Positions 1,420 through 62,252 are shown, counted from the first letter of the stretch. The stretch: DNA of 64,000 nt from Candidatus Nomurabacteria bacterium (GCA_029288775.1 JARIGQ010000001.1:29044-93043), one strand, 5' to 3'. Notes: generated by a model from the sequence alone, not told the origin. Program-made: numbers and translations.

Positions 1420-1827
1420 ATGTCCCGTCAGAATGAACCCGTGTACGTGATGAGCTGTCCCGATAGGCTAATTACTCCCGAGTGGAACTGGCAAATAGCC
1501 GCAGTGCGATTCGAGGAGACTCGCAATGATTTTCTGAAAAACATTCCATCTAAGGGTTTGCAGGGTTCGTGGTATTACACCTGTTTTCCTGTGCGAGGGA
1601 TGACAGGGTGTCCACTTACCGTTGAGCGGATACGTGTGATTCGCAAGATTGTGCAGGAATTTCGGGATGTGGAGCATCCCAAACGCTATGAGCGTGCTGC
1701 GCGCGTGCAGAGTTTGTTTGAGAAATATCTTGAACACCCTCCATGTTCTCTTCTTGATAACTGGGATGGCAAAGCGCCTGAGCGGCTTCAACACGCTCAG
1801 CGTATGTTCGGTCATCTCGGGTACTGA
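1420..1827 (+). CDS. Hypothetical Cys-containing protein (135 aa)
   Basis: AGGAGG Shine-Dalgarno 8 nt upstream of the ATG. An intrinsic terminator follows. The antisense ORF has no RBS. Confidence 0.5.
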   Translation: MSRQNEPVYVMSCPDRLITPEWNWQIAAVRFEETRNDFLKNIPSKGLQGSWYYTCFPVRGMTGCPLTVERIRVIRKIVQEFRDVEHPKRYERAARVQSLFEKYLEHPPCSLLDNWDGKAPERLQHAQRMFGHLGY

Positions 1828-1830
1828 GCA

Positions 1831-1858
1831 AACGGCGCATCGCGCCGTTTTCTTTTTT
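1831..1858 (+). terminator. Rho-independent terminator
   Basis: AACGGCGC-atc-GCGCCGTT hairpin followed by TTTTCTTTTTT. Confidence 0.7.
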
Positions 1859-1899: not shown

Positions 1900-4608
1900 A
1901 TGGATCAGACTCTAAAAACTCCTGAGGAAGAGATTGCTTATTTGCGTTCGCAAATTCAAAACAAAGTGGAAGCATCCAAAGGGTTCGAAGATCGTTTTAC
2001 CTCAGAAGATCATGCTCATGAAGTAGTTCGTGAGTATAAGCAAGTACCCCTTGAAAAAGCAGTTGCTCCGCAGCAGATGGTTACTGCCGGGGAAAAGCAG
2101 CGGCTTTTGGAATGGCTGACACCCAGAGAAACGGATGAACAGGTAAAAATGCTTGCGCAGGTTATGGCAGAAAAGGGCCTTAAAAATGCTTTTAGTATGA
2201 TGGAGTCGCTTAATTATCCGGAAGTTGAGGACGATTTCGAGCGTTACTTGGTGCAATACCTCATTTCTGGTCATGAAGTTAAAAACAATCTTTCCAAGGA
2301 AGAATGGAAGGCGCTCCATATGAAGCTTTTTGAAGTGGTATTACCCGACGTTCAGGATCAAGGAAAGGGAGCCAAGGAAATGATGGCGCTTATGGAGCAA
2401 TGGTATGCCTCTATGCAGGCACTTGCTCCAGAGCCCACCAACAAGGACAAGAATTACTATTCATTGGAACTTGCAGTGGCTAATGGTACAACCACGGCGG
2501 TTTTTTATTGTGCGGTACATATTGACTATGCTTCGCTTTTTGAAAAAGTGGTGCTTGGTATTTTCCCAACCGCTCAAGTTCGCGAGCAAAAGGAGGATTA
2601 TAATATTTTTACCAAGCACGCTATTACTACGTGTGCGTACGCCTCCGCAAGCACGCATCCAACACTCCCACTTAAAACCTATACCAACATGGAGGGGGAT
2701 CCGATGTCGCTTATTATTGCTTCTTTCACTAAGATAGCGCGGGAAAATGAAGGCCTTGCGCTCCAGCTTCTTATTCGTCCTTCGGGGGATATGTTTGCTA
2801 AGAGGTATGGAGAAATGTTGGAGGATTTGCGAAAAGGGGAGACGCTCAAGCGGGTTATTGAAAAGCAGGATAACTTGAAAGAGTCATTCCGTATTCTCGG
2901 ATCAATGTTTAGTAGTAAATCTGCTGAACAATTAGCTAAAGAAAAAGAGAAGAAACAAACGTTTGTGGACGAAACAGCAATGAAGCATGTACAGGACAAA
3001 CTTTCACGTACTATTGTAGAAACCAATATTCGTATTATTGCTTCGGCAGAAACATTACCTCGTGCACAAGCTATTCGTTCGGAACTTGAGGCTTCATTTG
3101 CCCAATTTGCAGAAGTAAATGGAAACAGCGTTAAATGGGTAGAAGTAGAAGGGCGTAAGCAGAAAGCCATGCTTCACCGTTATTCGTATCGCTTGTGGAA
3201 TGATGATGAAAGTTATCCGCTTAATATAGCCGAGCTTGCATCGCTATTTCATTTTCCAACCCAAACCAAAGATACGGCAAATGTACGCGAACAAACGGCG
3301 ACTCAAGCAGCTGCTCCATTGGACATGCCTTCAGAAGGGGTGGTATTGGGAGTAAATAGATTCCGCGGTCAAGAAACTATGATTCACATGTCGCGAGAGG
3401 ATCGGATGCGTCATTTGTATGTGATAGGGCAGACAGGTACAGGTAAGACCTCCATTTTGAAGAATCTTATTATTCAGGATATTAAAAATGGTGATGGGTG
3501 CTGTTTCATTGATCCGCACGGGTCCGATATTATGGATATTTTGGCGTCCATTCCTCCGGAGCGCTCGCAAGATGTTATATATTTTGATCCAGGGAATACC
3601 GCTCGTCCCATGGGTCTTAATATGCTCGAATATGATCGGAATTATCCTGAACAGAAAACATTCGTTGTAAATGAGCTTTTGGGTATTTTCAATAAGCTCT
3701 TCGATATGAAGACATCCGGAGGTCCAGGGTTTGAACAGTACTTTAGAAACGCAACTATGCTCGTTATGGAGCATCCGGAGTCGGGGAATACGCTTCTTGA
3801 AATTGCTCGTATCTTTTCTGATAAGGACTTTAGAGATTATAAGCTTTCGAAGACCAAGAATCCGCTCCTGCTTCAATTTTGGCAAAATGCGGAAAAGACT
3901 ACAGGAGAACAGGGGCTTCAGAACTGGACCCAGTATGTTAATTCCAAATTCGATGTCTTTCTTTCAAATGACATTATGCGTCCGATTATTGCCCAGGAGA
4001 AGAGTGCGTTTAATATCCGTGACATTATGGATGGACGCAAGATTTTCCTTGTGAATCTTTCCAAAGGACGCCTAGGAGACATCAATGCTTCACTTATCGG
4101 TCTTATTTTGGTCGGTAAGTTCTTACAAGCCGCCCTTTCTCGCGTGGACACCACGGAACGCCCTGATTTCTATCTGTATATCGACGAATTTCAAAACATT
4201 ACCACGCCATCCATTTCAGCTATTCTCTCTGAAGCACGCAAGTATCGTCTTAGTCTTAACTTGGCTCATCAATTCATCGCTCAGCTTCCTGAAGACACCA
4301 AGGGAGCGGTATTTGGCAACGTTGGTTCAATGGCATTCTTTCGTGTCGGACCTGATGATGCTCAATACTTGGAGCCGCAGCTTTCACCAACATTTACTGC
4401 AAGTGACCTTATGAAAATCCAGAATTATCATGCCTATCTTAAAGTACTGGTGAATGGTGAACCGAAAAAGCCATTTGACATTGTAACGCTTCCACCAGAA
4501 AAGGGTGATGCAACACGTATCGAGCCGCTTAAGGAATTAAGCTATCTTACCTATGGTCGACCAAAAGAAGAAGTAGAAGCTGAGATTTTGAAGAAGTATC
4601 AACTTTAA
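1900..4608 (+). CDS. TraD/VirD4 (type IV coupling protein)-like P-loop ATPase with a large uncharacterised N-terminal domain; no TM anchor
   Basis: Walker A GQTGTGKTS, DPHG, Walker B YLYIDEFQN, and an ARKYRLSLNLAHQF TraG-D_C-like motif in the C-terminal half. The N-terminal ~450 aa are soluble and unrecognised. Confidence 0.8.
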   Translation: MDQTLKTPEEEIAYLRSQIQNKVEASKGFEDRFTSEDHAHEVVREYKQVPLEKAVAPQQMVTAGEKQRLLEWLTPRETDEQVKMLAQVMAEKGLKNAFSMMESLNYPEVEDDFERYLVQYLISGHEVKNNLSKEEWKALHMKLFEVVLPDVQDQGKGAKEMMALMEQWYASMQALAPEPTNKDKNYYSLELAVANGTTTAVFYCAVHIDYASLFEKVVLGIFPTAQVREQKEDYNIFTKHAITTCAYASASTHPTLPLKTYTNMEGDPMSLIIASFTKIARENEGLALQLLIRPSGDMFAKRYGEMLEDLRKGETLKRVIEKQDNLKESFRILGSMFSSKSAEQLAKEKEKKQTFVDETAMKHVQDKLSRTIVETNIRIIASAETLPRAQAIRSELEASFAQFAEVNGNSVKWVEVEGRKQKAMLHRYSYRLWNDDESYPLNIAELASLFHFPTQTKDTANVREQTATQAAAPLDMPSEGVVLGVNRFRGQETMIHMSREDRMRHLYVIGQTGTGKTSILKNLIIQDIKNGDGCCFIDPHGSDIMDILASIPPERSQDVIYFDPGNTARPMGLNMLEYDRNYPEQKTFVVNELLGIFNKLFDMKTSGGPGFEQYFRNATMLVMEHPESGNTLLEIARIFSDKDFRDYKLSKTKNPLLLQFWQNAEKTTGEQGLQNWTQYVNSKFDVFLSNDIMRPIIAQEKSAFNIRDIMDGRKIFLVNLSKGRLGDINASLIGLILVGKFLQAALSRVDTTERPDFYLYIDEFQNITTPSISAILSEARKYRLSLNLAHQFIAQLPEDTKGAVFGNVGSMAFFRVGPDDAQYLEPQLSPTFTASDLMKIQNYHAYLKVLVNGEPKKPFDIVTLPPEKGDATRIEPLKELSYLTYGRPKEEVEAEILKKYQL

Positions 4609-4610
4609 GT

Positions 4611-4784
4611 ATGGACGCACCTCTTATTATTTTTGCCCTGACTCTTCTTGCGTACATTCCGCTTGCATGCGTTCTTTTGTATGTGTGGTGGAAATATGGA
4701 AAAGGGGAGGTTGGGGTATCGTTGGCCCGAGTCATTTTCCTTGCCGGTTCGGTAGGGTTGCTTTTCCTTATGATTACCGTATGA
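4611..4784 (+). CDS. Small hydrophobic 2-TM peptide (57 aa); below the ORF-track cutoff
   Basis: Translates as MDAPLIIFALTLLAYIPLACVLLYVWWKYGKGEVGVSLARVIFLAGSVGLLFLMITV. The ATG lies 3 nt after the ATPase stop. Its TGA overlaps the ATG of the next gene (ATGA). Confidence 0.4.
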   Translation: MDAPLIIFALTLLAYIPLACVLLYVWWKYGKGEVGVSLARVIFLAGSVGLLFLMITV

Positions 4785-5335
4785 ATACGTTTACACCAGA
4801 ACATCTTTTAGAAGAAGGAGAAATAATCACAGAACGTATTCGCAAGCACTGGATTGTGTATGTGCAAGCTTTCTTCTTGCATGCTTTCGGCTGCGTTATA
4901 TTTCTCATATGTGCCTATTATCTTGCTTCTAAAGGTGATTTCTCGGCCCTTCTCGGGGAAGGGTCTATATACGGTTCTATGACACTCATTACCTTTGTGC
5001 TCATTTTTTGGACAAGCTTTTTTTATGCATGGACCAAAGAATATTTTGATGTGTGGTATGTGACCACCATGCATATTATTGCCATCAATCAAAAGGAGAT
5101 TTTTACTCGCGATGAGTCGTTTATGGAACTTAATCGTATTCAGGATGTTTTCTTTGAAAAGGAGGGATTTCTCGCTCATGTACTTGGGTATGGAACCTTG
5201 CGAGTGCAGACAGCTGGAACGCTCCAAGAATTCGTAATTGAAAATGTAAAAGACGTGGAGTCTGTTGCTCATCGTCTGATGGAGATTCGAGACCATCTAC
5301 AAGAACGAAAAGATCCCATTAATCCATCTCCCTAA
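4781..5335 (+). CDS. Membrane-flanked bacterial PH domain protein (bPH_2 / YdbS-like)
   Basis: Short N-terminus, two TM helices, then a PH-like domain. The start was chosen at the ATGA overlap, not the 4667 track start, whose N-terminus is non-hydrophobic. Confidence 0.6.
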   Translation: MNTFTPEHLLEEGEIITERIRKHWIVYVQAFFLHAFGCVIFLICAYYLASKGDFSALLGEGSIYGSMTLITFVLIFWTSFFYAWTKEYFDVWYVTTMHIIAINQKEIFTRDESFMELNRIQDVFFEKEGFLAHVLGYGTLRVQTAGTLQEFVIENVKDVESVAHRLMEIRDHLQERKDPINPSP

Positions 5336-6137
5336 GCGCGAGAATATTTTCGTATTTTACTGTAGGGATGTAGTGTTCATCAATTGGAAAGCGTATATTG
5401 TTTTCATCAAAAGCGTAGAGGGAGAATTTTTGGTCTAAAAGAAAGCGAAGAATGTCATGCACAGTATAATCATAGCGTGCAAAATTTCTTGGAGCCGCTT
5501 CAAAGTATACGGCTTGCACCTTGGCAAGCATACGATGCGCTCCACGTAACGCGTGGAATTCATATCCTTCAATGTCGAGTTTAAGAAGGTTAACGTGAGA
5601 AAAATGACCAGCTAGATCATCAAGTGTGAGCATAGGAACAGTAAGTACTCCATCATCATTGATATGGTTTATATCGCTCACATATTCATCTGTTGCTTTC
5701 ATGGTGCCTGTCTTGTCACCCACTGCCACATTAAGCGCTTTTACATTAACACAGCCGTTTGCGCGCAGATTGGCCGTGAGATACCGGTAGGTGCGAGGAT
5801 GCATTTCACACGCCAGTACGTGTCCATCTTTCCCAACAAGCTTTGAGGCGGTGATAGCAAGGGTTCCCAGATGGGCGCCGCAGTCAATAACAATATCGCC
5901 AGGTTTGAGAAATGTTTCATAAAAGAGTTCGTCACTTTTATTTTTTTCCGTACGAGTCCATAACCAAAATGCCAAAGGGGCATACCACACTCGCATGCGA
6001 TACCATTTTCGACGCACCCAAAAGAGAGGGGAAAGTCCCATTCTATACAGAATATATTTAATTAGAGGAATAGGGTTACCACGAAAGAGAGCGCGTCGGG
6101 TAAATTCTTTTTCTCGAAGCGTGTGGAAAAATTTCAT
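5319..6137 (-). CDS. FkbM-family methyltransferase
   Basis: VIDCGAHLGT SAM-binding motif and LKLDIEGYE, both typical of the FkbM family. Confidence 0.8.
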   Translation of the reverse strand: MKFFHTLREKEFTRRALFRGNPIPLIKYILYRMGLSPLFWVRRKWYRMRVWYAPLAFWLWTRTEKNKSDELFYETFLKPGDIVIDCGAHLGTLAITASKLVGKDGHVLACEMHPRTYRYLTANLRANGCVNVKALNVAVGDKTGTMKATDEYVSDINHINDDGVLTVPMLTLDDLAGHFSHVNLLKLDIEGYEFHALRGAHRMLAKVQAVYFEAAPRNFARYDYTVHDILRFLLDQKFSLYAFDENNIRFPIDEHYIPTVKYENILALREMD

Positions 6138-12762: not shown

Positions 12763-15700
12763 ATGTCTAATTTCTCAATGAAGATTGTTGCAGCTGCAAC
12801 AATCGTCGGAGGTGCGATCGCCGGTGCAGTTTCTGCATCAGCTGCTCTCAACCTTCCAACACAGAACTGTTCTTACATGTTCAATACGAACATGAAGCTC
12901 GGTTCTCGTGGTACAGATGTTATGAATCTTCAAAAGATGCTTAACATGTGGCCTCAGACACAGGTTGCCGCTTCAGGTGCAGGTTCTCCAGGAATGGAAA
13001 CTTCTACCTTCGGTCCAGCAACTCGTGCTGCGGTAAATAAGTTCCAAGCTCTTCACCTTGTTGAGCTCGGAATTACTGCTCCTACAGGAAACGTATTCGC
13101 AGGAACACGTGCATTGCTCAACGCAGCATGTAACGGTACTGTAAGTACTAACCCAGGAACTCCAGGTACACCTGGAAACACTACTGGTCCAGTTTCAGCT
13201 ATGCTCTCGGCTTCACAGCCGTCAGGTATGATTGTTCAGGGTCAGTCAGGTGCTCGTCTTGCTGACATGACTTTCACTGGAAACGGTACAGTTACATCTG
13301 TACAGCTTCAGCGTACTGGTGTGTCAACAGACTCATCACTTACTAACGTATACCTTTACGACGGAAACACTCGCATCACTGATGCAGCTTCTGTAGTAAC
13401 AGGCGGATACATCAACTTCAACAATCCTAACGGTCTCTTTACAGTATCAGGATCACGTACAATCACTGTACGTGCTGACATTGCAAGCAACACGAATGGG
13501 CAGTCAGTTGGTGTAAAGCTTAACAGTGTTACAGCTGGTGGTGCAGTCTCTACATTTTCTAATGTAATGGGCAACACTCTCCAAATTGCTAACGTAACAA
13601 CTGCATCAGTAAACATTGCAGCGATGGATACATCATCTCGTACTGTTGATGCAGGTACAGTTAACTACACACTTTGGTCAGGTTCTGCAACTGTATCTAC
13701 ACGCGATGTAAATATGCGTGCAGCTACATTTAAGTTCGTAGGTTCAGCTCCAGCTGACTTCGCAACTAACCTTAACCTCTTCGTTGATGGTGTTAAGATT
13801 GCAGGTCCTTCAATGGTTAACGCGGCTAACAATAACAAGGTTACTTTTGACCTTGGTTCAATGCCATATCTTCTAAAGACTGGCTCACACACAATTGAAC
13901 TCCGTGGTGACATTGTTAAGGGTTCAAACCGTACAGCTACTTTCTCAGTTGAGAATCCAGCTGACCTTATGTTCGAAGATACTAACCTTATGGGTGTAAA
14001 CGTATCTCCAACTGTAGCAAGCGCAACTCTTACTCAGTCAAACTCAGCTTACGGTACTATTACTGTAAACAAGGGTTCAGTAACTGTTAACGTTGATCCA
14101 TCATTCAACGGTACTAAGGTAACAGGTGGTGCTACTAACGTTCCAGTTGGTCAGTTCACACTTAAGGCGTATGGCGAAGACGTGAAGGTAAATAGCCTTC
14201 AGGTTAACTTCAACAACACGACTGCTACATCAATGAACAACGTATCGCTCTATGTAAATGGAGGTCAGATTGGTACGTCACAGAACTACCGCAACGCGGC
14301 TCTTACGTACAACCTTGGTTCATCACTTATCATCCCTGCTGGCCAGACTGTAACTCTTACAGTTAAGGCTGACGTGGTTGATGCAAACAACTCAGCTTGG
14401 TCATCGGGTACGGTACAGGCTCAGATTGGTGGTGTAGCAAATAACGCTCAGGGTCAGTCATCTAATGAACTTACTTCAGTTGCGTCTTCACCAGTATCTG
14501 GCAATAGTCTCACCGTTTCATCTGGTGCAGGAACATTTGCTCGTACTGCAGGTTTCTCAACTGTAACAGTTTCACCTAATACTTCAGGTGTTAAGATTGG
14601 ATCATTCACGATTCAGGCTAACTCATCAGAAGCTATTAATGTGACTTCTATTGGTGTTAATCCAACTGTAGCAACATACGGTATCACGAATATTTCAAAC
14701 CTTCGTGTTATGTCAAATGGTGCAACTGTAGGAACTCCAATTGGAAACCCTTCAACAGGAACTTCAACGTTCTCGTTCCCTCAGATCACTATCCCTGCTA
14801 ACGGTACACAGACATTTGATGTGTTCGCTGACATTGGTCCAGCAACATCAGGTTCTGTAACTACAGGCATGGATATTACATACCGTGGTGCGATCTCTAA
14901 TACAACGACAACTTCAACAGCTGCCGGTGTAGCGATCACATCTGCAAACTCATCACTTACAGCTTCAACGCTTGCGGCTTCATCACCGGTTGCGCAGTTC
15001 GTAGTGGGAGGTTCAACATTCGGTATTGCAACTTACACGCTTAAGACTTCTGCAGCAGGTACGTTAGCTAACGTTCGCGAACTTCGCTTCAACGTTAACA
15101 ATGGTTCGGGTTCAACCCTTACTAACGCTATCCAGTCTGTAACAGTTGGCGGTGTAACAGCTCCAGTAGTTAACGGTACGTCTACTGTTACTGGCCTCAA
15201 TATCCCAGTTAACTCAACTGGTACAGATGTTCCAGTAACTGTTACGTTCTCTAACTACCAGAACGCTTCTGTTAATCCTGGTTCACTTTCTACAACTGTA
15301 GGTAACGTAGCACTTATCCTTACATACGTAGAAGCAACATCAGGAACAGGAAACGTGATCTTCAACACTGTTACTGCAACTTCAAGTACAATGATCGGTG
15401 TAGCTTCTAAGCCTACGGTAACTACCGGTGCAGGCAACGTAGATACACTCGTACTTGGTTCTGAAAACAAGGTTGGTGAATTCACAGTAACCGCAGATGC
15501 TAACGGTAAGATTGCTGTAGGTACAACTTCAGTTGACCTCTCAGCTATCGGTGTTACGAACCCTCAGTTCTCTGCAGGACGTATCGCTGATGGAAACACT
15601 ACGATTGCTAACACAAGCGTAACTGGTTCCTCAACAATGACCGTTACCTTCACAACTCCTTACCAGATCAGTGCAGGTCAGTCAAAGACCTTCTCACTTT

Positions 15701-15873
15701 ACGCAACTGTAAACGGTGCTGCTCAGTCAGGAATCACTCCTTACGTAGCTTCACGCTTCACGACAGGATCGTCTACAGCGTTCATGTGGTATGACGTTGC
15801 AGGTGGAAACACTAGCGAAACTGGTGCTTCAATCTACGGCTTCCCAACATCAAGCTTTACAACAAAGCGCTAA
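12763..15873 (+). CDS. Large secreted surface protein (S-layer-like candidate): signal peptide, PG_binding_1 domain, about 900 aa of Thr/Ser/Gly/Asn/Val-rich repeats
   Basis: Signal peptide at the N-terminus. Peptidoglycan-binding motif (GSRGTDVMNLQKML...AVNKFQA). Almost no charged residues afterwards. Distinct codon usage (GGT/ACT/TCA/GTA/GCA). Confidence 0.85.
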   Translation: MSNFSMKIVAAATIVGGAIAGAVSASAALNLPTQNCSYMFNTNMKLGSRGTDVMNLQKMLNMWPQTQVAASGAGSPGMETSTFGPATRAAVNKFQALHLVELGITAPTGNVFAGTRALLNAACNGTVSTNPGTPGTPGNTTGPVSAMLSASQPSGMIVQGQSGARLADMTFTGNGTVTSVQLQRTGVSTDSSLTNVYLYDGNTRITDAASVVTGGYINFNNPNGLFTVSGSRTITVRADIASNTNGQSVGVKLNSVTAGGAVSTFSNVMGNTLQIANVTTASVNIAAMDTSSRTVDAGTVNYTLWSGSATVSTRDVNMRAATFKFVGSAPADFATNLNLFVDGVKIAGPSMVNAANNNKVTFDLGSMPYLLKTGSHTIELRGDIVKGSNRTATFSVENPADLMFEDTNLMGVNVSPTVASATLTQSNSAYGTITVNKGSVTVNVDPSFNGTKVTGGATNVPVGQFTLKAYGEDVKVNSLQVNFNNTTATSMNNVSLYVNGGQIGTSQNYRNAALTYNLGSSLIIPAGQTVTLTVKADVVDANNSAWSSGTVQAQIGGVANNAQGQSSNELTSVASSPVSGNSLTVSSGAGTFARTAGFSTVTVSPNTSGVKIGSFTIQANSSEAINVTSIGVNPTVATYGITNISNLRVMSNGATVGTPIGNPSTGTSTFSFPQITIPANGTQTFDVFADIGPATSGSVTTGMDITYRGAISNTTTTSTAAGVAITSANSSLTASTLAASSPVAQFVVGGSTFGIATYTLKTSAAGTLANVRELRFNVNNGSGSTLTNAIQSVTVGGVTAPVVNGTSTVTGLNIPVNSTGTDVPVTVTFSNYQNASVNPGSLSTTVGNVALILTYVEATSGTGNVIFNTVTATSSTMIGVASKPTVTTGAGNVDTLVLGSENKVGEFTVTADANGKIAVGTTSVDLSAIGVTNPQFSAGRIADGNTTIANTSVTGSSTMTVTFTTPYQISAGQSKTFSLYATVNGAAQSGITPYVASRFTTGSSTAFMWYDVAGGNTSETGASIYGFPTSSFTTKR

Positions 15874-19989: not shown

Positions 19990-20630
19990 TATGAGCACTG
20001 TTAATGATGAAGAACACGAAAATTACTAGCTAAAAACCGCAGGCAAGTGACGTTTCGTTACGCGCCCGCCGGTAAGGCGGATTTTCTTTTCTAAAAATTG
20101 TTACAGGGGAGGTTCGTTGACAATAGAATCCCGTGCACAACACGCGCAACAATACTGTTATCCAGTAGTAGTAATATTCACTGGGGTCTAGCGGAGTTTG
20201 TAGTACGGGGAACATGAAAGATAATCAATGCACAAGTAGCTTGTAAACCTGCTTGTGCAGCACGCACATAACAATGGAGCGGTCCGGAGTTATGTGGTAG
20301 TTATGTTTCCTAATAGGAACATAAGAGCATACGGTGGATGCCTAGGCTCTAACAAGCGATGAAAGACGTGATCAGGCGGCGATACGCTTCGGGGAGGTGC
20401 CTAATAACCTTCGATCCGGAGATTTCTGAATGGGGAAACCTCATACGAGTAATGTTGTATGGTCTTAGAGAGCATTCTCAAGACGCGCACCCAGGGAAGT
20501 GAAACATCTCAGTACCTGGAGGAAAAGAAAACAAAAGTTATTCTGCAAGTAGCGGCGAGCGAAAACAGAGAAGCCCAAACCAGCACACCACTTTGCTTTC
20601 AATTGATATCGTTCATGTATGTTTATAAGG

Positions 20631-20987
20631 GGAAAAAAGTTCTTTGCCCGCCTACCAAGGCGTGCACATATCCGATTCATCGGATATGGCGGGTCTCAAT
20701 TAGGGAAGCAGCCATGAGGTGAGCCTCTGTGAGACCGAATGAGATACCAGAGGTTGACGTACGCTTGTTGGTGACGTTGACCGGAGCGCCCGAAAGCGCA
20801 AGCTAACGGGAACAACGCACACGAAATCTCTCGTGTGCGTTGACAATGCCGTAAGGCTTCAAGGTGCTGACAAAAATGCCTTACGGAAGCTGGCCAGGCT
20901 GTGAACGATCGCATCGGCTTGGTTGGAAGGTGAGAGGCCGCAGGAACCCCCGCTCTTTAAAGTTTTGCCGATTATAAATCGGCTCTC
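20631..20987 (+). other. Structured insertion of about 357 nt in 23S domain I, closed by a roughly 50-bp imperfect inverted repeat (20581-20630 with 20988-21048); IVS-like
   Basis: Flanks CAGCACACCACTTTGC...ATGTATGTTTATAAGG and CCTTATAAACATACAT...GCAAAGTGGTGTGCTGG are reverse complements. No counterpart in E. coli 23S helices 9-10. Confidence 0.6.
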
Positions 20988-21251
20988 CTTATAAACATAC
21001 ATGAACGAATACGATATCAATTGAATTGAAGGCAAAGTGGTGTGCTGGGGTAGTAAGACAGAAACGTAGATTTCTAGAAGAGTTACAAAAGGTAAATATA
21101 GACTAAGTTGTTGGAAAGCAACGCCACAGAAAGTGATAGCCTTGTAGTCGAAATATTTATCTCTCTTTTGTTTCTGATCTTGAGTAGTTCGAGACACGAA
21201 TAGCTCGGATGAATCAGCCGGAACTAACCGGTAAGGCTAAATATTGTTAGA

Positions 21252-21297
<46 letters not shown>

Positions 21298-22772
21298 GGA
21301 AGGGGAGTGAAATAGAACTGAAACCGTATGTTTACAAAGAGTAGAAGAGGTATTTATACCTCGACTGCGTGCCTATTGAAGAATGAGCCAACGAGTTGTA
21401 GGTTACTGCAGGCTAAGTGGTATAAAGTCACGGAGCCATAGCGAAAGCAAGTGTTAATAGCGCGAACCAATTGTAGTAGCTTACAGACCCGAAGCCGGAT
21501 GAGCTTACCATGAGCAGGGTGAAGCAGTGCGAAAGCACTGTGGAGGCCCGAACCAGTAGGTTGTACGACTCCTTTGGATGACTTGTGGTAAGGAGTGAAA
21601 AGCTAATCGAATTCGGTAATAGCTGGTTCTCTCCGAAATAGTTTTTGGACTAGCGTCATGTGTTCCCTTTGGGGGTAGAGCACTGGAAGGTTTTGACTAG
21701 TAGAAATACGGCAACACCTATCAAACTCCGAATACCAAAGGTTAAAAACATGGCAGTAAGACCACGGGGGCGAAGCTCCGTCGGTCAAAAGGGAAACAGC
21801 CCAGATCTCAAGTTAAGGTCCCTAAGTATAGATTAAGTGTATAGCGAGGAGGTGGAGTTTCATTGACAATGAGGATGTTGGCTTAGAAGCAGCCATCATT
21901 GAAAGAAAGCGTAACAGCTCACCCATCGAGAGACTCTGCGCCGTAAATGATCGGGACTAAAATCTATCACCGAAACTGAGGGCTTCCTATTTATAGGGAG
22001 CGGTAGGAGAGTGTTCCACTCTGCGCTGAAGCGGAAGGGGTAACCCACCGTGGAGCGTGTGGAAGTACGAATGTTGGCACAAGTAACCGCAAGGAAGGTG
22101 AGATCCCTTCCCGCCGAAAGAATAAGGTTTCCTTTGCAATGATTGTCAGCGAAGGGTTAGTCGGGCCTAAGGAGATGGCAAACGCCGGATCCGATGGACA
22201 TAAGGTTAATATTCCTTAACTTGGTAGTAATGTGATGGGATGACGGGGTGTAGTATGTAAAGCGTCTTATTGGATTGACGTTTATTGTGTAAGTGGCTTG
22301 TGTAGGGAAATCCGCACGAGTATACCGCAAGCACCGTATGAAGGTGAGGGGCAACCCGAGCCAATTTTACAAAGCACGCCTCCGAGAAAAGTCTCTACAT
22401 TCTGTGAATACAGAACGTCTTCTTGTGCCTTTTACTAGGTACGAGCTTGCTTGTATCTAGATCATCTAGGTACAAGAAGATGCTTAAGTTACTATTAATC
22501 CGTACCGCAAACCGACACAGGTATTCGAGTCGAGTAGACTAAGGCGAACGAGTGATATCTCCCTAAGGAACTAGGCAAAAAAGCGATCGTAAGTTAGCGA
22601 TAAGATCTGCCCATAGCAATATGGGCCGCAGCGAAAGTTTCCCTAGCGACTGTTTACCAAAAACACAGCTTCCTGCGAACACGTAAGTGGATGTATAGGA
22701 GGTGACGCCTGACCAATGCGGGAAGGTCAAATATCGGCGGTGCTTCGGTGCTGGATGATATAAGCCCCCGTC

Positions 22773-22804
<32 letters not shown>

Positions 22805-23018
22805 TCTGATCATATCTATGATGTGGTCAGAACGGACTAGGACGGTTATAGGGAATTTGGTTTAAATAAAGTAAAAACAGTCTAATTGTGTACGCTTCAT
22901 AAAGCTACCTGTTGCATCGAAATATGCATTCAGTCCAATGTGATTAACGAGAGACCAACGTCACACATCTGACCATTAGGTTGAAGATGAAGATAGAGTC
23001 CAACTTGAGGAATAGTTG
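22805..23018 (+). other. Group-I-type intron in 23S at the E. coli U1917 site (214 nt)
   Basis: Interrupts the universal GGUCCUAAGGU|AGCGAAAUUCC. 5' exon ends in U and the insert ends in G. P7-like R/S elements GGACUAG and AAGAUAGAGUCC. P9 hairpin CAACU-tgaggaau-AGUUG before the terminal G. P1/IGS pairing was not found. Confidence 0.55.
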
Positions 23019-23588
23019 AGCGAAATTCCTTGTCTGGTAAGTTCAGACGTGCACGAATGGCGTAACGACTGGGGAACTGTCTCAGGGAGTAGCTCGGTGA
23101 AAATACAGTGGGGGTGAAGATGCCCCCTAGCTGCAGATAGACGAAAAGACCCCGTGAGCTTTACTCTAGCTTGGTATTGCAAGTGTTCAATTACTGCGTA
23201 GTGTAGTGGTGAGAGGTTGAAGGTATGATTTCGGTTGTACTGGACTCGTCGATGAAACAGCCATCTGTAATTGGGCACTTGCTAACGTGAACGGAAAAAA
23301 CGTTCGCAGACAGTATCTGGTGGGGAGTTTAACTGGGGCGGTTTCCTCCCAAAAGGTAACGGAGGAGTATATTAAGGTCATCTAGGCGCGAATGGAAACC
23401 GTGCCGATAGCGCAAGGGCATAAGATGGCTTGACTGTGAGACGGGCATGTCGAGCAGACGCGAAAGCGGGTCCTAGTGAACCTACTCTTGGCTTTAGACG
23501 CCGGAGCAGATTAACGGATAGAAGCTACCACGGGGATAACAGGCTAGTTGTGCCTAAGAGTTCATATCGACGGCACAGTTCGGCACCT

Positions 23589-23942
23589 TAACTTTAATCG
23601 GGGTGCGTCAGGAGCAATCCTGTAGCAACACATGTACAATCGTCAAATAAATAATATGTACACAAGAAATCTTGGCTTATAACGGTGAAACCCTTATGCA
23701 TGAACACCATAAGGGCAATACCGTGGGAAGTTTATATGTAAGAAAGCGATCACTCCAATTGTATTGGAGAGCTGCACACCTCAAAATGTGATTACATGTA
23801 TAACCTCGTAGAGACTTGTCACGCATGTGACGGAGTTGTGGTTCAAAGAAGATAAACCATAGCTAATACGCCAACGCCGCCTTTGATCGGGCGGATGAAG
23901 ATATAGTCCGATCCTTCCAGTAATGGAAGACAAATACGACAG
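23589..23942 (+). other. Group I intron in the 23S peptidyl-transferase region near E. coli 2500 (354 nt)
   Basis: Interrupts GGCACCU|CGAUGUCGG. IGS GGGUGC (23601-23606) pairs with exon GCACCU, with U.G at the splice site. S element AAGAUAUAGUCC is an exact consensus match. R-like AGAGACUUG. P9 hairpin CUUCCA-guaa-UGGAAG. Terminal G. Confidence 0.7.
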
Positions 23943-24088
23943 CGATGTCGGCTCATCTTATCCTGGTGGTGGAGAAGCTACCAAGGGTTTGGCTGTTCGC
24001 CAATTAAAAAGATACGTGAGCTGGGTTCAAACCGTCGTGAGACAGGTTGGTTTCCTATCTTCTGCAGCCGTTCGAATATTGAGAAGAT

Positions 24089-24119
<31 letters not shown>

Positions 24120-24474
24120 TGACCTCTGGTGTGTGGGCTCTAGCGCCAGCTGGACCGCCCAGTAGCTATGTCGGGAATGGATAACCTCTGAAAGCATCTA
24201 AGAGGGAAGCCAACTTCAAGATAAGTATTCGTTGAGGGTCGTAAGAGATGATTACGTTGATAGGATCTAAGTGTACGCACAGTAATGTGTTTAGCTGAGG
24301 ATTACTAATTACCCGAATCCTATTAGGAAACATGATTATCACAAATAATCATCGTGCATCTTTCATGTGGTGAGAGGAGGTTGAAGAGTCTGATACCAGC
24401 AATGGTCGCTTACAATTTGGCTTCCTCTCACCACGTGAAGATTTGGTTCTTTCATGTTGTGAACGATATATGAT

Positions 24475-24650
24475 GGGGATGTAGCTCAGTTGGTAGAGCG
24501 TTTCCCTGGGGGTTGGGTGTCAACGCCCGACTTGTCTCCCAGCTAGTTGCCGAGTACAAAAGGCTTAGGCAAAAGGACTGCCGCCGACGAGGTGGAGGAA
24601 GGGGGAGAGCAGGGGGAAGGTCGCAGGTTCAAATCCTGCCATCTCCACCA
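24475..24650 (+). tRNA. tRNA-like gene (probable tRNA-Pro, anticodon GGG) interrupted by a roughly 100-nt insert in the anticodon loop; CCA encoded
   Basis: Acceptor GGGGATG pairs with CATCTCC. Canonical D-arm GCTC-AGTTGGTA-GAGC. T-arm GCAGG-TTCAAAT-CCTGC. Anticodon stem TTTCC pairs with GGGAA only across about 101 nt (about 24512-24612). Confidence 0.45.
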
Positions 24651-39842: not shown

Positions 39843-42185
39843 ATGAAATTTTCATTGAATTGGCTTCAAGAGTACAGTAAAGAACCACTTCCAAATGTGG
39901 ATAGTCTTTCGGAAATGATAACGCTTAATGCCTTCGAGATTGAAGGTATGGAAAAGCTTGCTCAGGATATGGTGCTTGATATTAAAGTATTGCCTAATCG
40001 TGCTCATGACGCTCTCGGACATCGAGGTATGGCGCGTGATATATGTGCTTTGGTAGGGAATACTTTTCACGATACTCAGGAATATTATGAAGGGGAAGGG
40101 GATACTTCTTTAGGTGAACCAAAGGTCATTGCAGCTTCTGAAGAATGTACTCGTTTTATGAGTGTACGTATTGAAGGAATAAAAGTAGAAGAATCACCGG
40201 TATGGCTTAAGGAGAAATTAAACGCCATTGGTCAGAAGAGTATTAATTCAATTGTTGATATCACCAATTTTGTTCAGTTTGCTATTAACAAGCCAATGCA
40301 TGCCTATGACGCAAGTTTGATTGCAGGTAATGCGCTCTATGCAAGGAAAGCAAAAGATGGTGAGAAGCTTATCACGCTTGATGATAAAGAACTTAGTTTG
40401 GATAGCGGTACTTTGGTAATTGCTGATGAAGAAAAGGCATTAGGGCTTGCCGGTATAAAAGGAGGCAAGTTTTCGGGGATTACCTCCGAGACGACGTCTG
40501 TGCTTTTGGAATCAGCGAATTTCAACTCCACCCTTATTAGAAAGACTTCGCAAAAGTATGGTATTCGCACGGATGCTTCCAAGCGTTTTGAAAATGAACT
40601 GGCAGATGAGTTGGTAGAAGACGGGCTCCGTCTAACAATTGCCCTTATCAAGAAACTTAACCCTGAAGCTCGCGTGAGTGCTATTGTAGACCATTGGACG
40701 CATCAAAGTTGGCCCTACGTTGTCTCTGTGTCTGTAGAGGAAATCAACAAGCATCTCGGCACTTCCTACGAAGAAAGTGACATTAAAAAAGTTTTTGAAC
40801 ATTTAGGATTTGGCGTGCGAAGTGCGACAACTCGCGAAATTATTGAAGAACAAGTAAAGAAAACAGAAGGAGCTCTCTACCAAAATCCTTCCAGCATGAG
40901 AACTGATGCGCCACATCTTTTTTCCTGTTCTTCGCTTATAAGTTTTCTTTTTGCTGGAGTATGGCAACCAAGTCTCTCTATTGATAAATATGTGTATGCT
41001 TCTCCTCTTAATAAGATTGATGCAAAGTGGGGGGATTTGGTATTTTCCAACACAGGGGAGGGAAAGATCCGCTATGAATCAGTGCAGTTTTTGCCTGGCA
41101 CTACCGTGGAGCAAGGTGTTGACCATGTGGGATTATATTTAGGGGACAACAAAGTGCTTCACATTTCCCATAACACAAATAAGGTTGTCACCCAAACCTT
41201 TGATGAAGCCGCAGACTTCACTGATAAACTTTTGTTTGCGCGACTTGTAGATGTTGAAGCTCCAAGATTATTTGTGAACGTTCCTCCAGAACGTCTGGAT
41301 ATTCGCATCAAGGAAGATCTTATTGAGGAAGTAGCTCGTATGAAAGGATTGTCTTCTATTCCTTCAGTGCTTCCGAATATTGCTCGCACGGGTATTCCTC
41401 ATAAGCGTTTATATTATGAGACCAAAATAAAAAATATTCTTTCTAAGGGGGGCTTTTCGGAAATCATGACGTACTCCTTTGGGGATGAAGGTGAGGTAGA
41501 AATCATGAAAGGCTCTGCTATGGACAAAGAAAAACTTCGCACCAAGCTTGCGCCTGGCCTCTGGAAGGCATTTCAGATGAATATGCTTAATGCGCCGCTT
41601 CTTCAGATTGATACGGTGAAGATGTACGAATTCGGAAACATCTTCACTCCTACTAATGAGCGTCGTCATTTTGCACTTATCATCGATGACGGTAAAAAGA
41701 AATCATCTTTTTCTGAAGAGGTTGATCTTGTGCTTTCTGAAATTAAACGCGAGCTTGGCGTGTCCCAGCTTGAATGCCAAACAGCAAGCACCAAGCCATA
41801 CTGTGTCGAGCTTGATTTTGATACACTGATCGAATCACTTCCTGAGCCTACGACGTATGAACCGCTTGCACAAGATCTATCACCTATTGCTTACAAACCA
41901 GTCTCTCCTTATCCGTTTATTGTTCGTGATATTGCTGTATGGGTACCTGCTTCTATCACATGGGAAACTATCCGTACTCTCGCTTTACAAATCAGTTCTC
42001 CTCTTATTGCTCGCTTGTATTGTTTTGATACCTTCGAAAAAGAGATAGAGGGGGTTCGGAAAACATCCTTTGCTTTCCGTTTTGTACTCCAATCGCATGA
42101 GCGCACGCTTACGGATGCTGAGGCCAATGAAGTGGCGGATAAGATGTACGCACTCCTTAAGGAAAAAGGGTATGAGATTCGCTAA
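39843..42185 (+). CDS. pheT: Phenylalanine--tRNA ligase beta subunit with an NlpC/P60-like domain inserted in the B5 domain
   Basis: B3/4 domain (LDIKVLPNRAHDALGHRGMARDI). B5 domain (EEINKHLG...EHLGFGV ... VNVPPERLDIRIKEDLIEEVAR) split by about 140 aa carrying SCSS, GDLVF and HVGLYLGDNKVLH (Cys/His/His, 12 residues between the two His). Confidence 0.85.
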   Translation: MKFSLNWLQEYSKEPLPNVDSLSEMITLNAFEIEGMEKLAQDMVLDIKVLPNRAHDALGHRGMARDICALVGNTFHDTQEYYEGEGDTSLGEPKVIAASEECTRFMSVRIEGIKVEESPVWLKEKLNAIGQKSINSIVDITNFVQFAINKPMHAYDASLIAGNALYARKAKDGEKLITLDDKELSLDSGTLVIADEEKALGLAGIKGGKFSGITSETTSVLLESANFNSTLIRKTSQKYGIRTDASKRFENELADELVEDGLRLTIALIKKLNPEARVSAIVDHWTHQSWPYVVSVSVEEINKHLGTSYEESDIKKVFEHLGFGVRSATTREIIEEQVKKTEGALYQNPSSMRTDAPHLFSCSSLISFLFAGVWQPSLSIDKYVYASPLNKIDAKWGDLVFSNTGEGKIRYESVQFLPGTTVEQGVDHVGLYLGDNKVLHISHNTNKVVTQTFDEAADFTDKLLFARLVDVEAPRLFVNVPPERLDIRIKEDLIEEVARMKGLSSIPSVLPNIARTGIPHKRLYYETKIKNILSKGGFSEIMTYSFGDEGEVEIMKGSAMDKEKLRTKLAPGLWKAFQMNMLNAPLLQIDTVKMYEFGNIFTPTNERRHFALIIDDGKKKSSFSEEVDLVLSEIKRELGVSQLECQTASTKPYCVELDFDTLIESLPEPTTYEPLAQDLSPIAYKPVSPYPFIVRDIAVWVPASITWETIRTLALQISSPLIARLYCFDTFEKEIEGVRKTSFAFRFVLQSHERTLTDAEANEVADKMYALLKEKGYEIR

Positions 42186-61954: not shown

Positions 61955-62252
61955 TATATGTCTTTGTCTGTAAGCCGAATTCTGTTTTTGTGTAGACATG
62001 TATCTTGTCCCGCCATTGCTGTCGAGATCTAGCGACACTCCTTAGTATTGCTAATAAGGCACGGTCTTGCACACGCGTATGTATTTAGCCGTTTCAGCCG
62101 GACTGAACCGGATCGTTTCTGTTCGCAACACGGTGGTCACCCACGACGGGCGTTACCCGCTACGTTTCCACAGTGAAGTGGTGTGTGTTCGGACTTTCCT
62201 CACCGTTTCCGGCGCGTCTACCCAACAAAGAACTTTTTTAGTATACCATATA

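Follow-up and report, generated by a model that had tools for sequence, protein, structure and literature searches.

The DUF8128 ATPase locus

A 64,000-nucleotide (nt) stretch of the genome of a Candidatus Nomurabacteria bacterium (GCA_029288775.1 JARIGQ010000001.1:29044-93043), hereafter referred to as the window, carries close to its start a gene encoding a 902-amino-acid (aa) ATPase, which is followed by genes for two small membrane proteins and by a convergent FkbM-family methyltransferase gene (Table 1). A first-pass annotation of this stretch, made from its sequence alone, had described the ATPase and the two membrane proteins as a three-gene module built on an anchor-less relative of the type IV coupling proteins (T4CPs) with one novel, motif-free N-terminal domain of about 450 aa. 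The positions of the open reading frames (ORFs), the convergent methyltransferase gene, the ATGA overlap between the two small genes, and the sequence motifs quoted for the ATPase were all read from the sequence as claimed.

Table 1. Features of the ATPase locus, with positions counted from the first nucleotide of the window.
Feature	Position	Strand	Evidence
DUF8128 / type IV secretion system (T4SS)-type ATPase gene, 902 aa, long fused anchor-less form	1900..4608	+	ORF
Helical domain, residues 1-135	1900..2304	+	jackhmmer homology to the separately encoded ~120-180-aa soluble partner of short-form relatives; helices in model
DUF8128 core, residues ~137-450, alpha/beta, VirB4-N-terminal-domain-like fold	2308..3249	+	
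FtsK/HerA-superfamily ATPase, VirB4/VirD4 clade, residues 481-902	3340..4605	+	Foldseek, Pfam, NCBIfam
Walker A GQTGTGKT, residues 510-517	3427..3450	+	translation
Walker B DEFQN, residues 762-766	4183..4197	+	translation
ARKY...AHQF, residues 779-792	4234..4275	+	translation; inside TraG-D_C match
57-aa peptide gene, two transmembrane (TM) segments	4611..4784	+	ORF and two hydrophobic segments
184-aa YdbS/YdbT-like membrane protein gene (2 TM segments and bPH_2 domain)	4781..5335	+	ORF; Pfam bPH_2, E 1.7e-5
FkbM-family methyltransferase gene, 272 aa, convergent	5319..6137	-	ORF; Pfam and NCBIfam matches
Terminator-like hairpin and T-run, 5' of the ATPase gene	1830..1850	+	9-bp stem with 6 G-C pairs, then TCTTTTTTAT; consensus match only

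Family and motifs of the ATPase

A database protein identical to the 902-aa protein has a precomputed Pfam assignment to PF26449 (DUF8128), as do nearly all of its homologues, and UniRef uses the same name; on these assignments, the ATPase is a member of the catalogued DUF8128 family. A database search returned more than 120 homologues that are 72-87% identical and others at about 50%, all covering the full length of the 902-aa protein. In the literature, nothing relevant to PF26449, DUF8128, or VirB4-like phage proteins was found.

The C-terminal half had been described as a T4SS-type ATPase core, and this was borne out by two Pfam families that scored above their cut-offs: TraG-D_C, at residues 757-820 (25.7 bits versus a cut-off of 22), and TrwB_AAD_bind, limited to the 46 residues from 497 to 542 (24.7 versus 20.5). 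T4SS-DNA_transf, which had been proposed as a further check, gave no match to the 902-aa protein itself. Among 30 diverse family members, TrwB_AAD_bind was found in 30, TraG-D_C in 27, and T4SS-DNA_transf in 11 (best 7.8e-12). The full-length T4CP models of NCBIfam remained far under their cut-offs with the 902-aa protein (TIGR03743, 43.6 versus 366; TIGR03754, 32.5 versus 647; TIGR02759, 15.8 versus 521). By sequence profiles, the ATPase half looks most like the T4CPs. Across 70 homologues, invariant positions were G510, Q511, T512, G513, G515, and K516 in Walker A; D762, E763, and F764 in Walker B; and A779, R780, K781, Y782, A789, H790, and Q791 in the ARKY...AHQF motif. The DPHG motif at residues 538-541 was likewise invariant among homologues. 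The absence of an N-terminal membrane anchor, also part of the first description, was upheld: no hydrophobic segment was found in the first 700 residues, and none before residue 728 on a Kyte-Doolittle plot.

Fused and unfused forms of the family

A search with residues 1-480 against 1.84 billion cluster representatives recovered 818 clusters at E <= 1e-3, whose full-length members fell into two length classes: those of about 900 aa aligned from query residue ~5, and those of about 800 aa only from residue ~137. In these short relatives, a strongly hydrophobic helix lies in the first ~30 residues and leads directly into the DUF8128 core. Moreover, immediately upstream of the short-form gene, on the same strand and typically at a spacing of -3 to ~20 nt, we observed a gene for a soluble helical protein of 120-180 aa. 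This small protein has no Pfam family match. A jackhmmer search started from residues 1-135 of the window protein gave 52 matches in about 50 distinct small ORFs, with E values from 3e-28 to 1e-5. The small partners (found at loci L093-L172) share a C-terminal motif, roughly KG(I/L)..A...NP..(I/L)D.FHD.LV..Y, which corresponds to window residues ~92-121; within residues 1-135, the conserved positions are G93, D112, F113, R115, and Y120.

The distribution of these elements depended on the form of the protein. An N-terminal TM helix was present in none of the fused (long) proteins, either at 78 genome loci or at 12 metagenome loci, and no separate upstream partner ORF was found at any of these 90 loci. 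In the unfused (short) form, by contrast, the TM helix was present at 55 of 59 loci and a small partner ORF lay upstream at 46 of the 59, within 250 nt in 42 cases. On this pattern, the window protein is a fusion of the partner to the ATPase, made at the place where its relatives have an anchor. The window form thus looks like a partner fusion that has lost the anchor of the family. The family as a whole is predicted to be membrane-associated, and its conserved unit is a two-component one, made up of the small helical protein and the DUF8128 ATPase.

Predicted structure and likeness to VirB4 and coupling proteins

The AF2 model of the full-length protein had a mean pLDDT of 82.3, and a separate model of residues 1-480 one of 82. 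Both were compared with PDB structures using Foldseek. For the full-length model, the top matches were to TrwK, the VirB4 protein of R388, over about 900 columns (E 1.9e-13). TrwB ranked after TrwK and was matched in the ATPase only (E ~4e-11, TMt 0.61-0.66), over almost the entire TrwB-deltaN70 chain; it was followed by HerA, Cag-beta, and DotL. With the N-terminal model, all 14 matches at E <= 1e-3 were TrwK chains. As this query lacks the P-loop domain and no other RecA-like ATPase was matched, the match must be to the VirB4 N-terminal domain, and the DUF8128 core (residues ~137-450) therefore has a VirB4-N-terminal-domain-like fold. The N-terminal region of about 450 aa is thus not the single novel domain without motif that had been proposed: PF26449 is assigned to it, and it consists of a fused small partner and a VirB4-N-terminal-domain-like fold. 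In the predicted structure, the overall arrangement of the 902-aa protein is a VirB4-like two-domain architecture.

At the sequence level, VirB4 families were absent from the 25 families most often matched by the 30 diverse members, and a profile search of PDB sequences matched only the P-loop region of TrwB and DotL. An assignment to VirB4 or to T4CPs by hhalign was tried as well; alignments of the family profile with F TraC and F TraD were equally weak, covered the ATPase only, and cannot discriminate between the two.

Like the VirB4 proteins (TrwK of R388, TraC of F), the window protein places an alpha/beta domain N-terminal to its T4SS-type ATPase, is collinear with TrwK over its full length, and lacks a TM helix of its own. 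It differs from them in that identity is just 8-11%, its ATPase yields T4CP-type and not VirB4-type profile matches, and it has an additional fused helical domain, with short-form relatives that carry their own TM helix. Nor was there a recurring VirB3-, VirB6-, or VirB8-like neighbour, although annotation covered the recurring clusters only and single occurrences could escape it. With the T4CPs (TrwB, VirD4, TraD, TraG, DotL, and Cag-beta), it shares the above-cut-off Pfam matches, an N-terminal TM anchor that is present in its relatives, and the ATPase core. In the model, seven helices at residues ~585-697 make up a candidate all-alpha insert in this core, which the chain-level Foldseek match to TrwB would accommodate. 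In contrast to T4CPs, a VirB4-like domain of ~300 aa lies between the anchor position and the ATPase, the window protein itself has no TM helix and fails the full-length T4CP models, and the gene sits in a chromosomal housekeeping context with no recurring relaxase or T4SS gene. Overall, the window protein is neither a classical T4CP nor, by sequence criteria, a VirB4.

The nearest relatives outside the Paceibacteria are the phage proteins of phrog_5156, from Bacillus and Geobacillus phages (0105phi7-2 gp033, annotated as 'DNA helicase or translocase', GBK2 gp32, and phage G gp156). The match covers the DUF8128 core and the ATPase (residues 181-899, E 1.3e-81), and these proteins, like the window protein, have no TM helix. 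They differ by their low identity (22-24%), by the lack of the N-terminal helical domain, and by the location of their genes in phage early or replication regions.

Conservation and gene neighbourhood

To describe the neighbourhood of the gene, we used 80 genome loci from species representatives whose ATPase was 43-83% identical to that of the window, belonging to named Paceibacteria or Parcubacteria lineages or to unclassified patescibacterial bins, together with 80 metagenome loci of more divergent relatives, each with 5-8 kb of flanking sequence. At 36 distant loci, median identity to the window protein was 66.5% in the ATPase half and 34% in the N-terminal 480 residues; at the same loci, Map had a median identity of 52% and Adk one of 29%. 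The ATPase half is thus more conserved than Map, a pattern that marks the gene as a strongly constrained core gene.

The long-form gene was located downstream of adk-map, in the order secY-adk-map, in 39 of the 80 genome loci, and a nucleoside diphosphate kinase gene (ndk) lay directly downstream in 37. After ndk, we often observed genes for a small membrane protein, a beta-CASP-like hydrolase (26 of 80 loci), and a LOG-like protein; ndk and the genes after it were identified by reading the sequences alone. Neighbours of the short form included GtrA-like, dnaX-like, and PMT_2 glycosyltransferase genes. No relaxase, integrase, or T4SS component was found among the recurring neighbour clusters of the ~160 loci. 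In the window, no VirB4 or other T4SS-type domain was detected in the ten largest other ORFs, a scan in which relaxase and pilin genes were not specifically sought. These results agree with the first-pass annotation in that the locus is not one of conjugation.

At locus L026, positions 2780-4270 (+) encode a 496-aa paralogue that consists of the ATPase half only and lies upstream of the DUF8128 gene, at a distance of 3.7 kb. It carries the motifs GKSGVGKT, DPHG, DEFHN, and ARKY..AHQY, and Parcubacteria may thus have T4CP-like genes of a second type.

The small membrane proteins and the methyltransferase

The 57-aa peptide exhibited two hydrophobic segments on a Kyte-Doolittle plot, in agreement with its description as a two-TM peptide, and the sequence WWKYGK was kept in six orthologues; library scans, with VirB3 included, gave no family match. 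In the 184-aa protein, the predicted bPH_2 domain (PF03703) was recovered at residues 89-164, covering profile positions 2-76 of 78 (25.4 bits versus 22), and hydrophobic segments were found at residues 23-51 and 57-85, as expected of a membrane protein. This arrangement of two N-terminal TM segments before a bacterial PH domain is that of the YdbS/YdbT-type bPH_2 proteins, and JGI labels homologues of the 184-aa protein as YdbT- or YdbS-like. The sub-family differs from these in being small, confined to one Paceibacteria clade, and paired with the 57-aa peptide: a database search returned 249 homologues, of which the best 120 were all at least 55% identical, and many of these lie on contigs whose lengths equal those of contigs with close-clade ATPases. 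The 272-aa protein matched Methyltransf_21 (FkbM) with an E value of 4e-19.

The tight coupling of the 57-aa gene to the ATPase gene stands, although its ATG, said to lie 3 nt after the ATPase stop, is separated from the stop codon by 2 nt and begins at the third base past it. The ATG of the 184-aa gene, at 4781, sits in an ATGA overlap with the stop of the 57-aa gene. The three genes do not form a conserved module, however. Single-sequence searches and family hidden Markov models (HMMs) of the 57-aa and bPH_2 proteins, applied to ~163 loci, found them only at L001-L007, a clade in which the ATPase is at least 73% identical to that of the window. The HMMs gave no match in the ~155 other ATPase loci; a diverged pair at distant loci was considered, and the matches stayed limited to L001-L007. 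The trio is therefore not co-conserved, which had been named at the outset as a result that would refute the module. No homologue of the FkbM gene was found beside the ATPase in any fetched locus.

In the close clade, the gene order is L6-L18-S5-L15-secY-adk-map-ATPase-57aa-bPH_2-efp-recA-ftsK. At L008, where the ATPase is 56% identical, the order adk-map-ATPase-efp-recA-ftsK is found without the two genes, and the gap between the ATPase gene and efp is just 82 nt. At L007, a 266-aa gene is inserted between the ATPase and peptide genes, and at L001 there is a 358-nt gap at this point. Because the whole secY-to-ftsK region is syntenic in the close clade, gene order is uninformative there. On present sequence comparisons, neither the two small membrane proteins nor the FkbM protein belongs to a conserved system; they are neighbours particular to one lineage or one genome. 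What had looked like a PH-domain "module" is a feature of the local neighbourhood, and a false lead is thereby removed.

Other features of the window

The remainder of the window is of housekeeping character, with adk, map, efp, recA, ftsK, pheT, gyrB, thrS, murJ, and the 23S and 5S rRNA genes among others. A 135-aa ORF at 1420-1827 (+) lies between map and the ATPase gene and is followed by the candidate terminator hairpin; it had no family match, and a homologue was found only at L003 (E 3e-18). For a 1036-aa ORF at 12763-15873 (+), Pfam gave nothing at E <= 1e-4. The phenylalanyl-tRNA synthetase beta chain, encoded at 39843-42185 (+), showed an NlpC/P60 match (E 2.8e-6) at residues 358-455, between B3_4 and B5.

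Several RNA genes were of unusual size. The 23S rRNA match at 20311-24327 (+) spans 4017 nt, compared with 2925 nt for the model, which implies insertion(s) of ~1.1 kb in total; no ORF of at least 150 aa was found inside it. Between the 23S and 5S genes, an Rfam tRNA match (52 bits) at 24475-24647 (+) covers 173 nt for a 71-nt model; ARAGORN detected no tRNA at this position, and the match may correspond to a tRNA carrying a large insertion. An RNase P class A match at 61955-62233 (-) scored 103.4, just above the gathering score of 100, with the whole 367-position model contained within 279 nt, which indicates a reduced RNA.

Discussion

We conclude with moderate confidence that the 902-aa protein is a core motor ATPase of the Paceibacteria, a class of candidate-phyla-radiation bacteria, that it belongs to the DUF8128 family and is made up of three parts, and that the small membrane protein and FkbM genes beside it are lineage- or genome-specific neighbours. 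By analogy with TrwB, VirB4, HerA, and FtsK, the DUF8128 ATPase would form a hexameric, ATP-driven ring. This ring may act on the cytoplasmic side of the membrane, where it would drive either macromolecule translocation or the assembly of a membrane machine, and such a hexameric motor at the membrane is, judging from these analogues, the most likely role. The helical partner domain could serve as an adaptor or a regulator, and the candidate substrates include DNA, nucleoprotein, and protein. The motor could be the second ATPase of a patescibacterial type IV secretion-like apparatus encoded elsewhere, or an independent exaptation; neither is strongly favoured.

Several points weigh against this interpretation. 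No conserved functional neighbour points to a substrate or a partner machine. The VirB4 likeness of the N-terminal domain is seen at the level of the fold only: no VirB4 Pfam family was matched by the window protein at E <= 0.1, and hhalign against F TraC aligned the ATPase alone (E 0.0026, probability 11%). The hexameric state and the placement of the anchor-less form at the membrane are both predictions. Finally, with a gap of 2 nt and an ATGA overlap, the three genes could be co-translated in this genome, so that a clade-specific functional link of the ATPase to the two membrane proteins could exist.

Such a link could take the form of a clade-restricted module, in which the anchor-less fused ATPase would be tethered by the 57-aa hairpin peptide, in a VirB3-like role, by the bPH_2 protein, or by both. 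In the VirB4 systems, small hairpin proteins such as VirB3 usually keep N-terminal domains of this type at the membrane, and by analogy the 57-aa peptide might do the same; the close spacing of the three genes and the retention of their order in six related species fit this idea. Yet more than 70 other species have the fused anchor-less form without either gene near the ATPase, L008 has the same flanks without them, the pair is separated from the ATPase gene by an insertion at L007 and by a long gap at L001, the retained order carries no information in a region that is syntenic throughout the clade, and the peptide matches neither VirB3 nor another family. A tether role for the two small proteins is thus left without comparative support, and we regard this module as improbable. 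Adk and ndk, together with the beta-CASP-like hydrolase, suggested instead a T4SS-independent nucleic-acid translocase, exapted from a T4SS ATPase and acting, for example, in DNA import or handling for nucleotide salvage, or in chromosome handling. However, adk is part of the spc operon, which is universal, and nothing can be read from its proximity; the linkage to ndk may reflect phylogenetic inertia, as it was seen in one sub-clade and at only 6 of 77 short-form loci. Moreover, neither a DNA-binding domain nor a linkage to comEC was seen, and FtsK is already encoded nearby. In favour of a translocase, the distant phage homologues are labelled as a DNA helicase or translocase and lie in early or replication regions. 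Among the 3,035 Patescibacteria genomes surveyed by Quinonero-Coronel et al. (2025, PMC12102498), VirD4-type/T4CP homologues are reported in 2,918 (96%), a wider distribution than that of VirB4 (2,417 genomes), with only 148 of 5,713 T4CP-homologue genes near virB4; the survey also lists archaeal VirB4-like proteins of the DNA-importing Ced type, which would provide a precedent. Taken together, we consider this translocase unlikely.

An anti-phage defence gene or a gene derived from a mobile element (MADS-like, a HerA-type defence ATPase, or a prophage remnant) appears far less probable still. The PADLOC scan gave a mad8 match (E 1.8e-13, residues 481-797) and weak HerA and DndH P-loop matches for the ATPase, as well as a weak mad2 match for FkbM, and the family has the phrog_5156 relatives described above. 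The PADLOC matches are limited to the shared ATPase and methyltransferase folds, no further components of a system were found, the 57-aa and bPH_2 membrane proteins had no match, and FkbM is not conserved; with no recognisable defence system in the scan, the suggestion of a defence module was abandoned. A prophage or mobile element at the window locus was rejected in the same way: the Bacillus phage proteins are distant, 2.9 million viral contigs contained six matches, at 34-36% identity and in the ATPase half only, and the gene, whose product is better conserved than Map, holds a steady place among housekeeping genes, behind map, throughout the class.

The core motor ATPase that we favour is not a wholly undescribed system, and the earlier statement to that effect was too strong. 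The family is in Pfam as DUF8128, and orphan T4CP homologues have already been reported, with exaptation suggested by the authors as a possibility for such genes (PMC12102498). According to the same source, the T4CP homologue of Ca. S. epibionticum is not essential, while other T4SS genes are. NCBI names DUF8128 members as T4SS DNA-transfer or TraM-recognition proteins, and the family may be among these orphan homologues. In the available part of the survey, there is no description of the N-terminal domain, of the small partner, or of the dichotomy of fusion and anchor. The literature searched contained no mention of a VirB4-like N-terminal domain in this family, of its partner as a split or fused element, or of an anchor that alternates with fusion. 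What is left is a variation on the T4SS ATPase theme.

More speculatively, DUF8128 could be a so far unrecognised third lineage of T4SS-type motors, combining a VirB4-like N-terminus, a coupling-protein-like ATPase, and a dedicated small helical partner, split or fused, and serving as an essential housekeeping translocase of Paceibacteria that would, for example, take up host macromolecules such as DNA, independently of conjugation and possibly of the canonical T4SS. We consider this doubtful; if true, it might inform how VirB4 and the coupling proteins diverged.

The Patescibacteria are host-dependent, and no type IV secretion-like apparatus other than theirs is, to our knowledge, known to be essential to growth. 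No role has been assigned to the near-universal coupling-protein-like ATPases whose genes lie apart from that apparatus. The DUF8128 family provides handles for experiments on these ATPases in an abundant, uncultivated group: a core gene, a VirB4-like domain, a dedicated partner, and anchored and anchor-less forms that differ by their fusion state.

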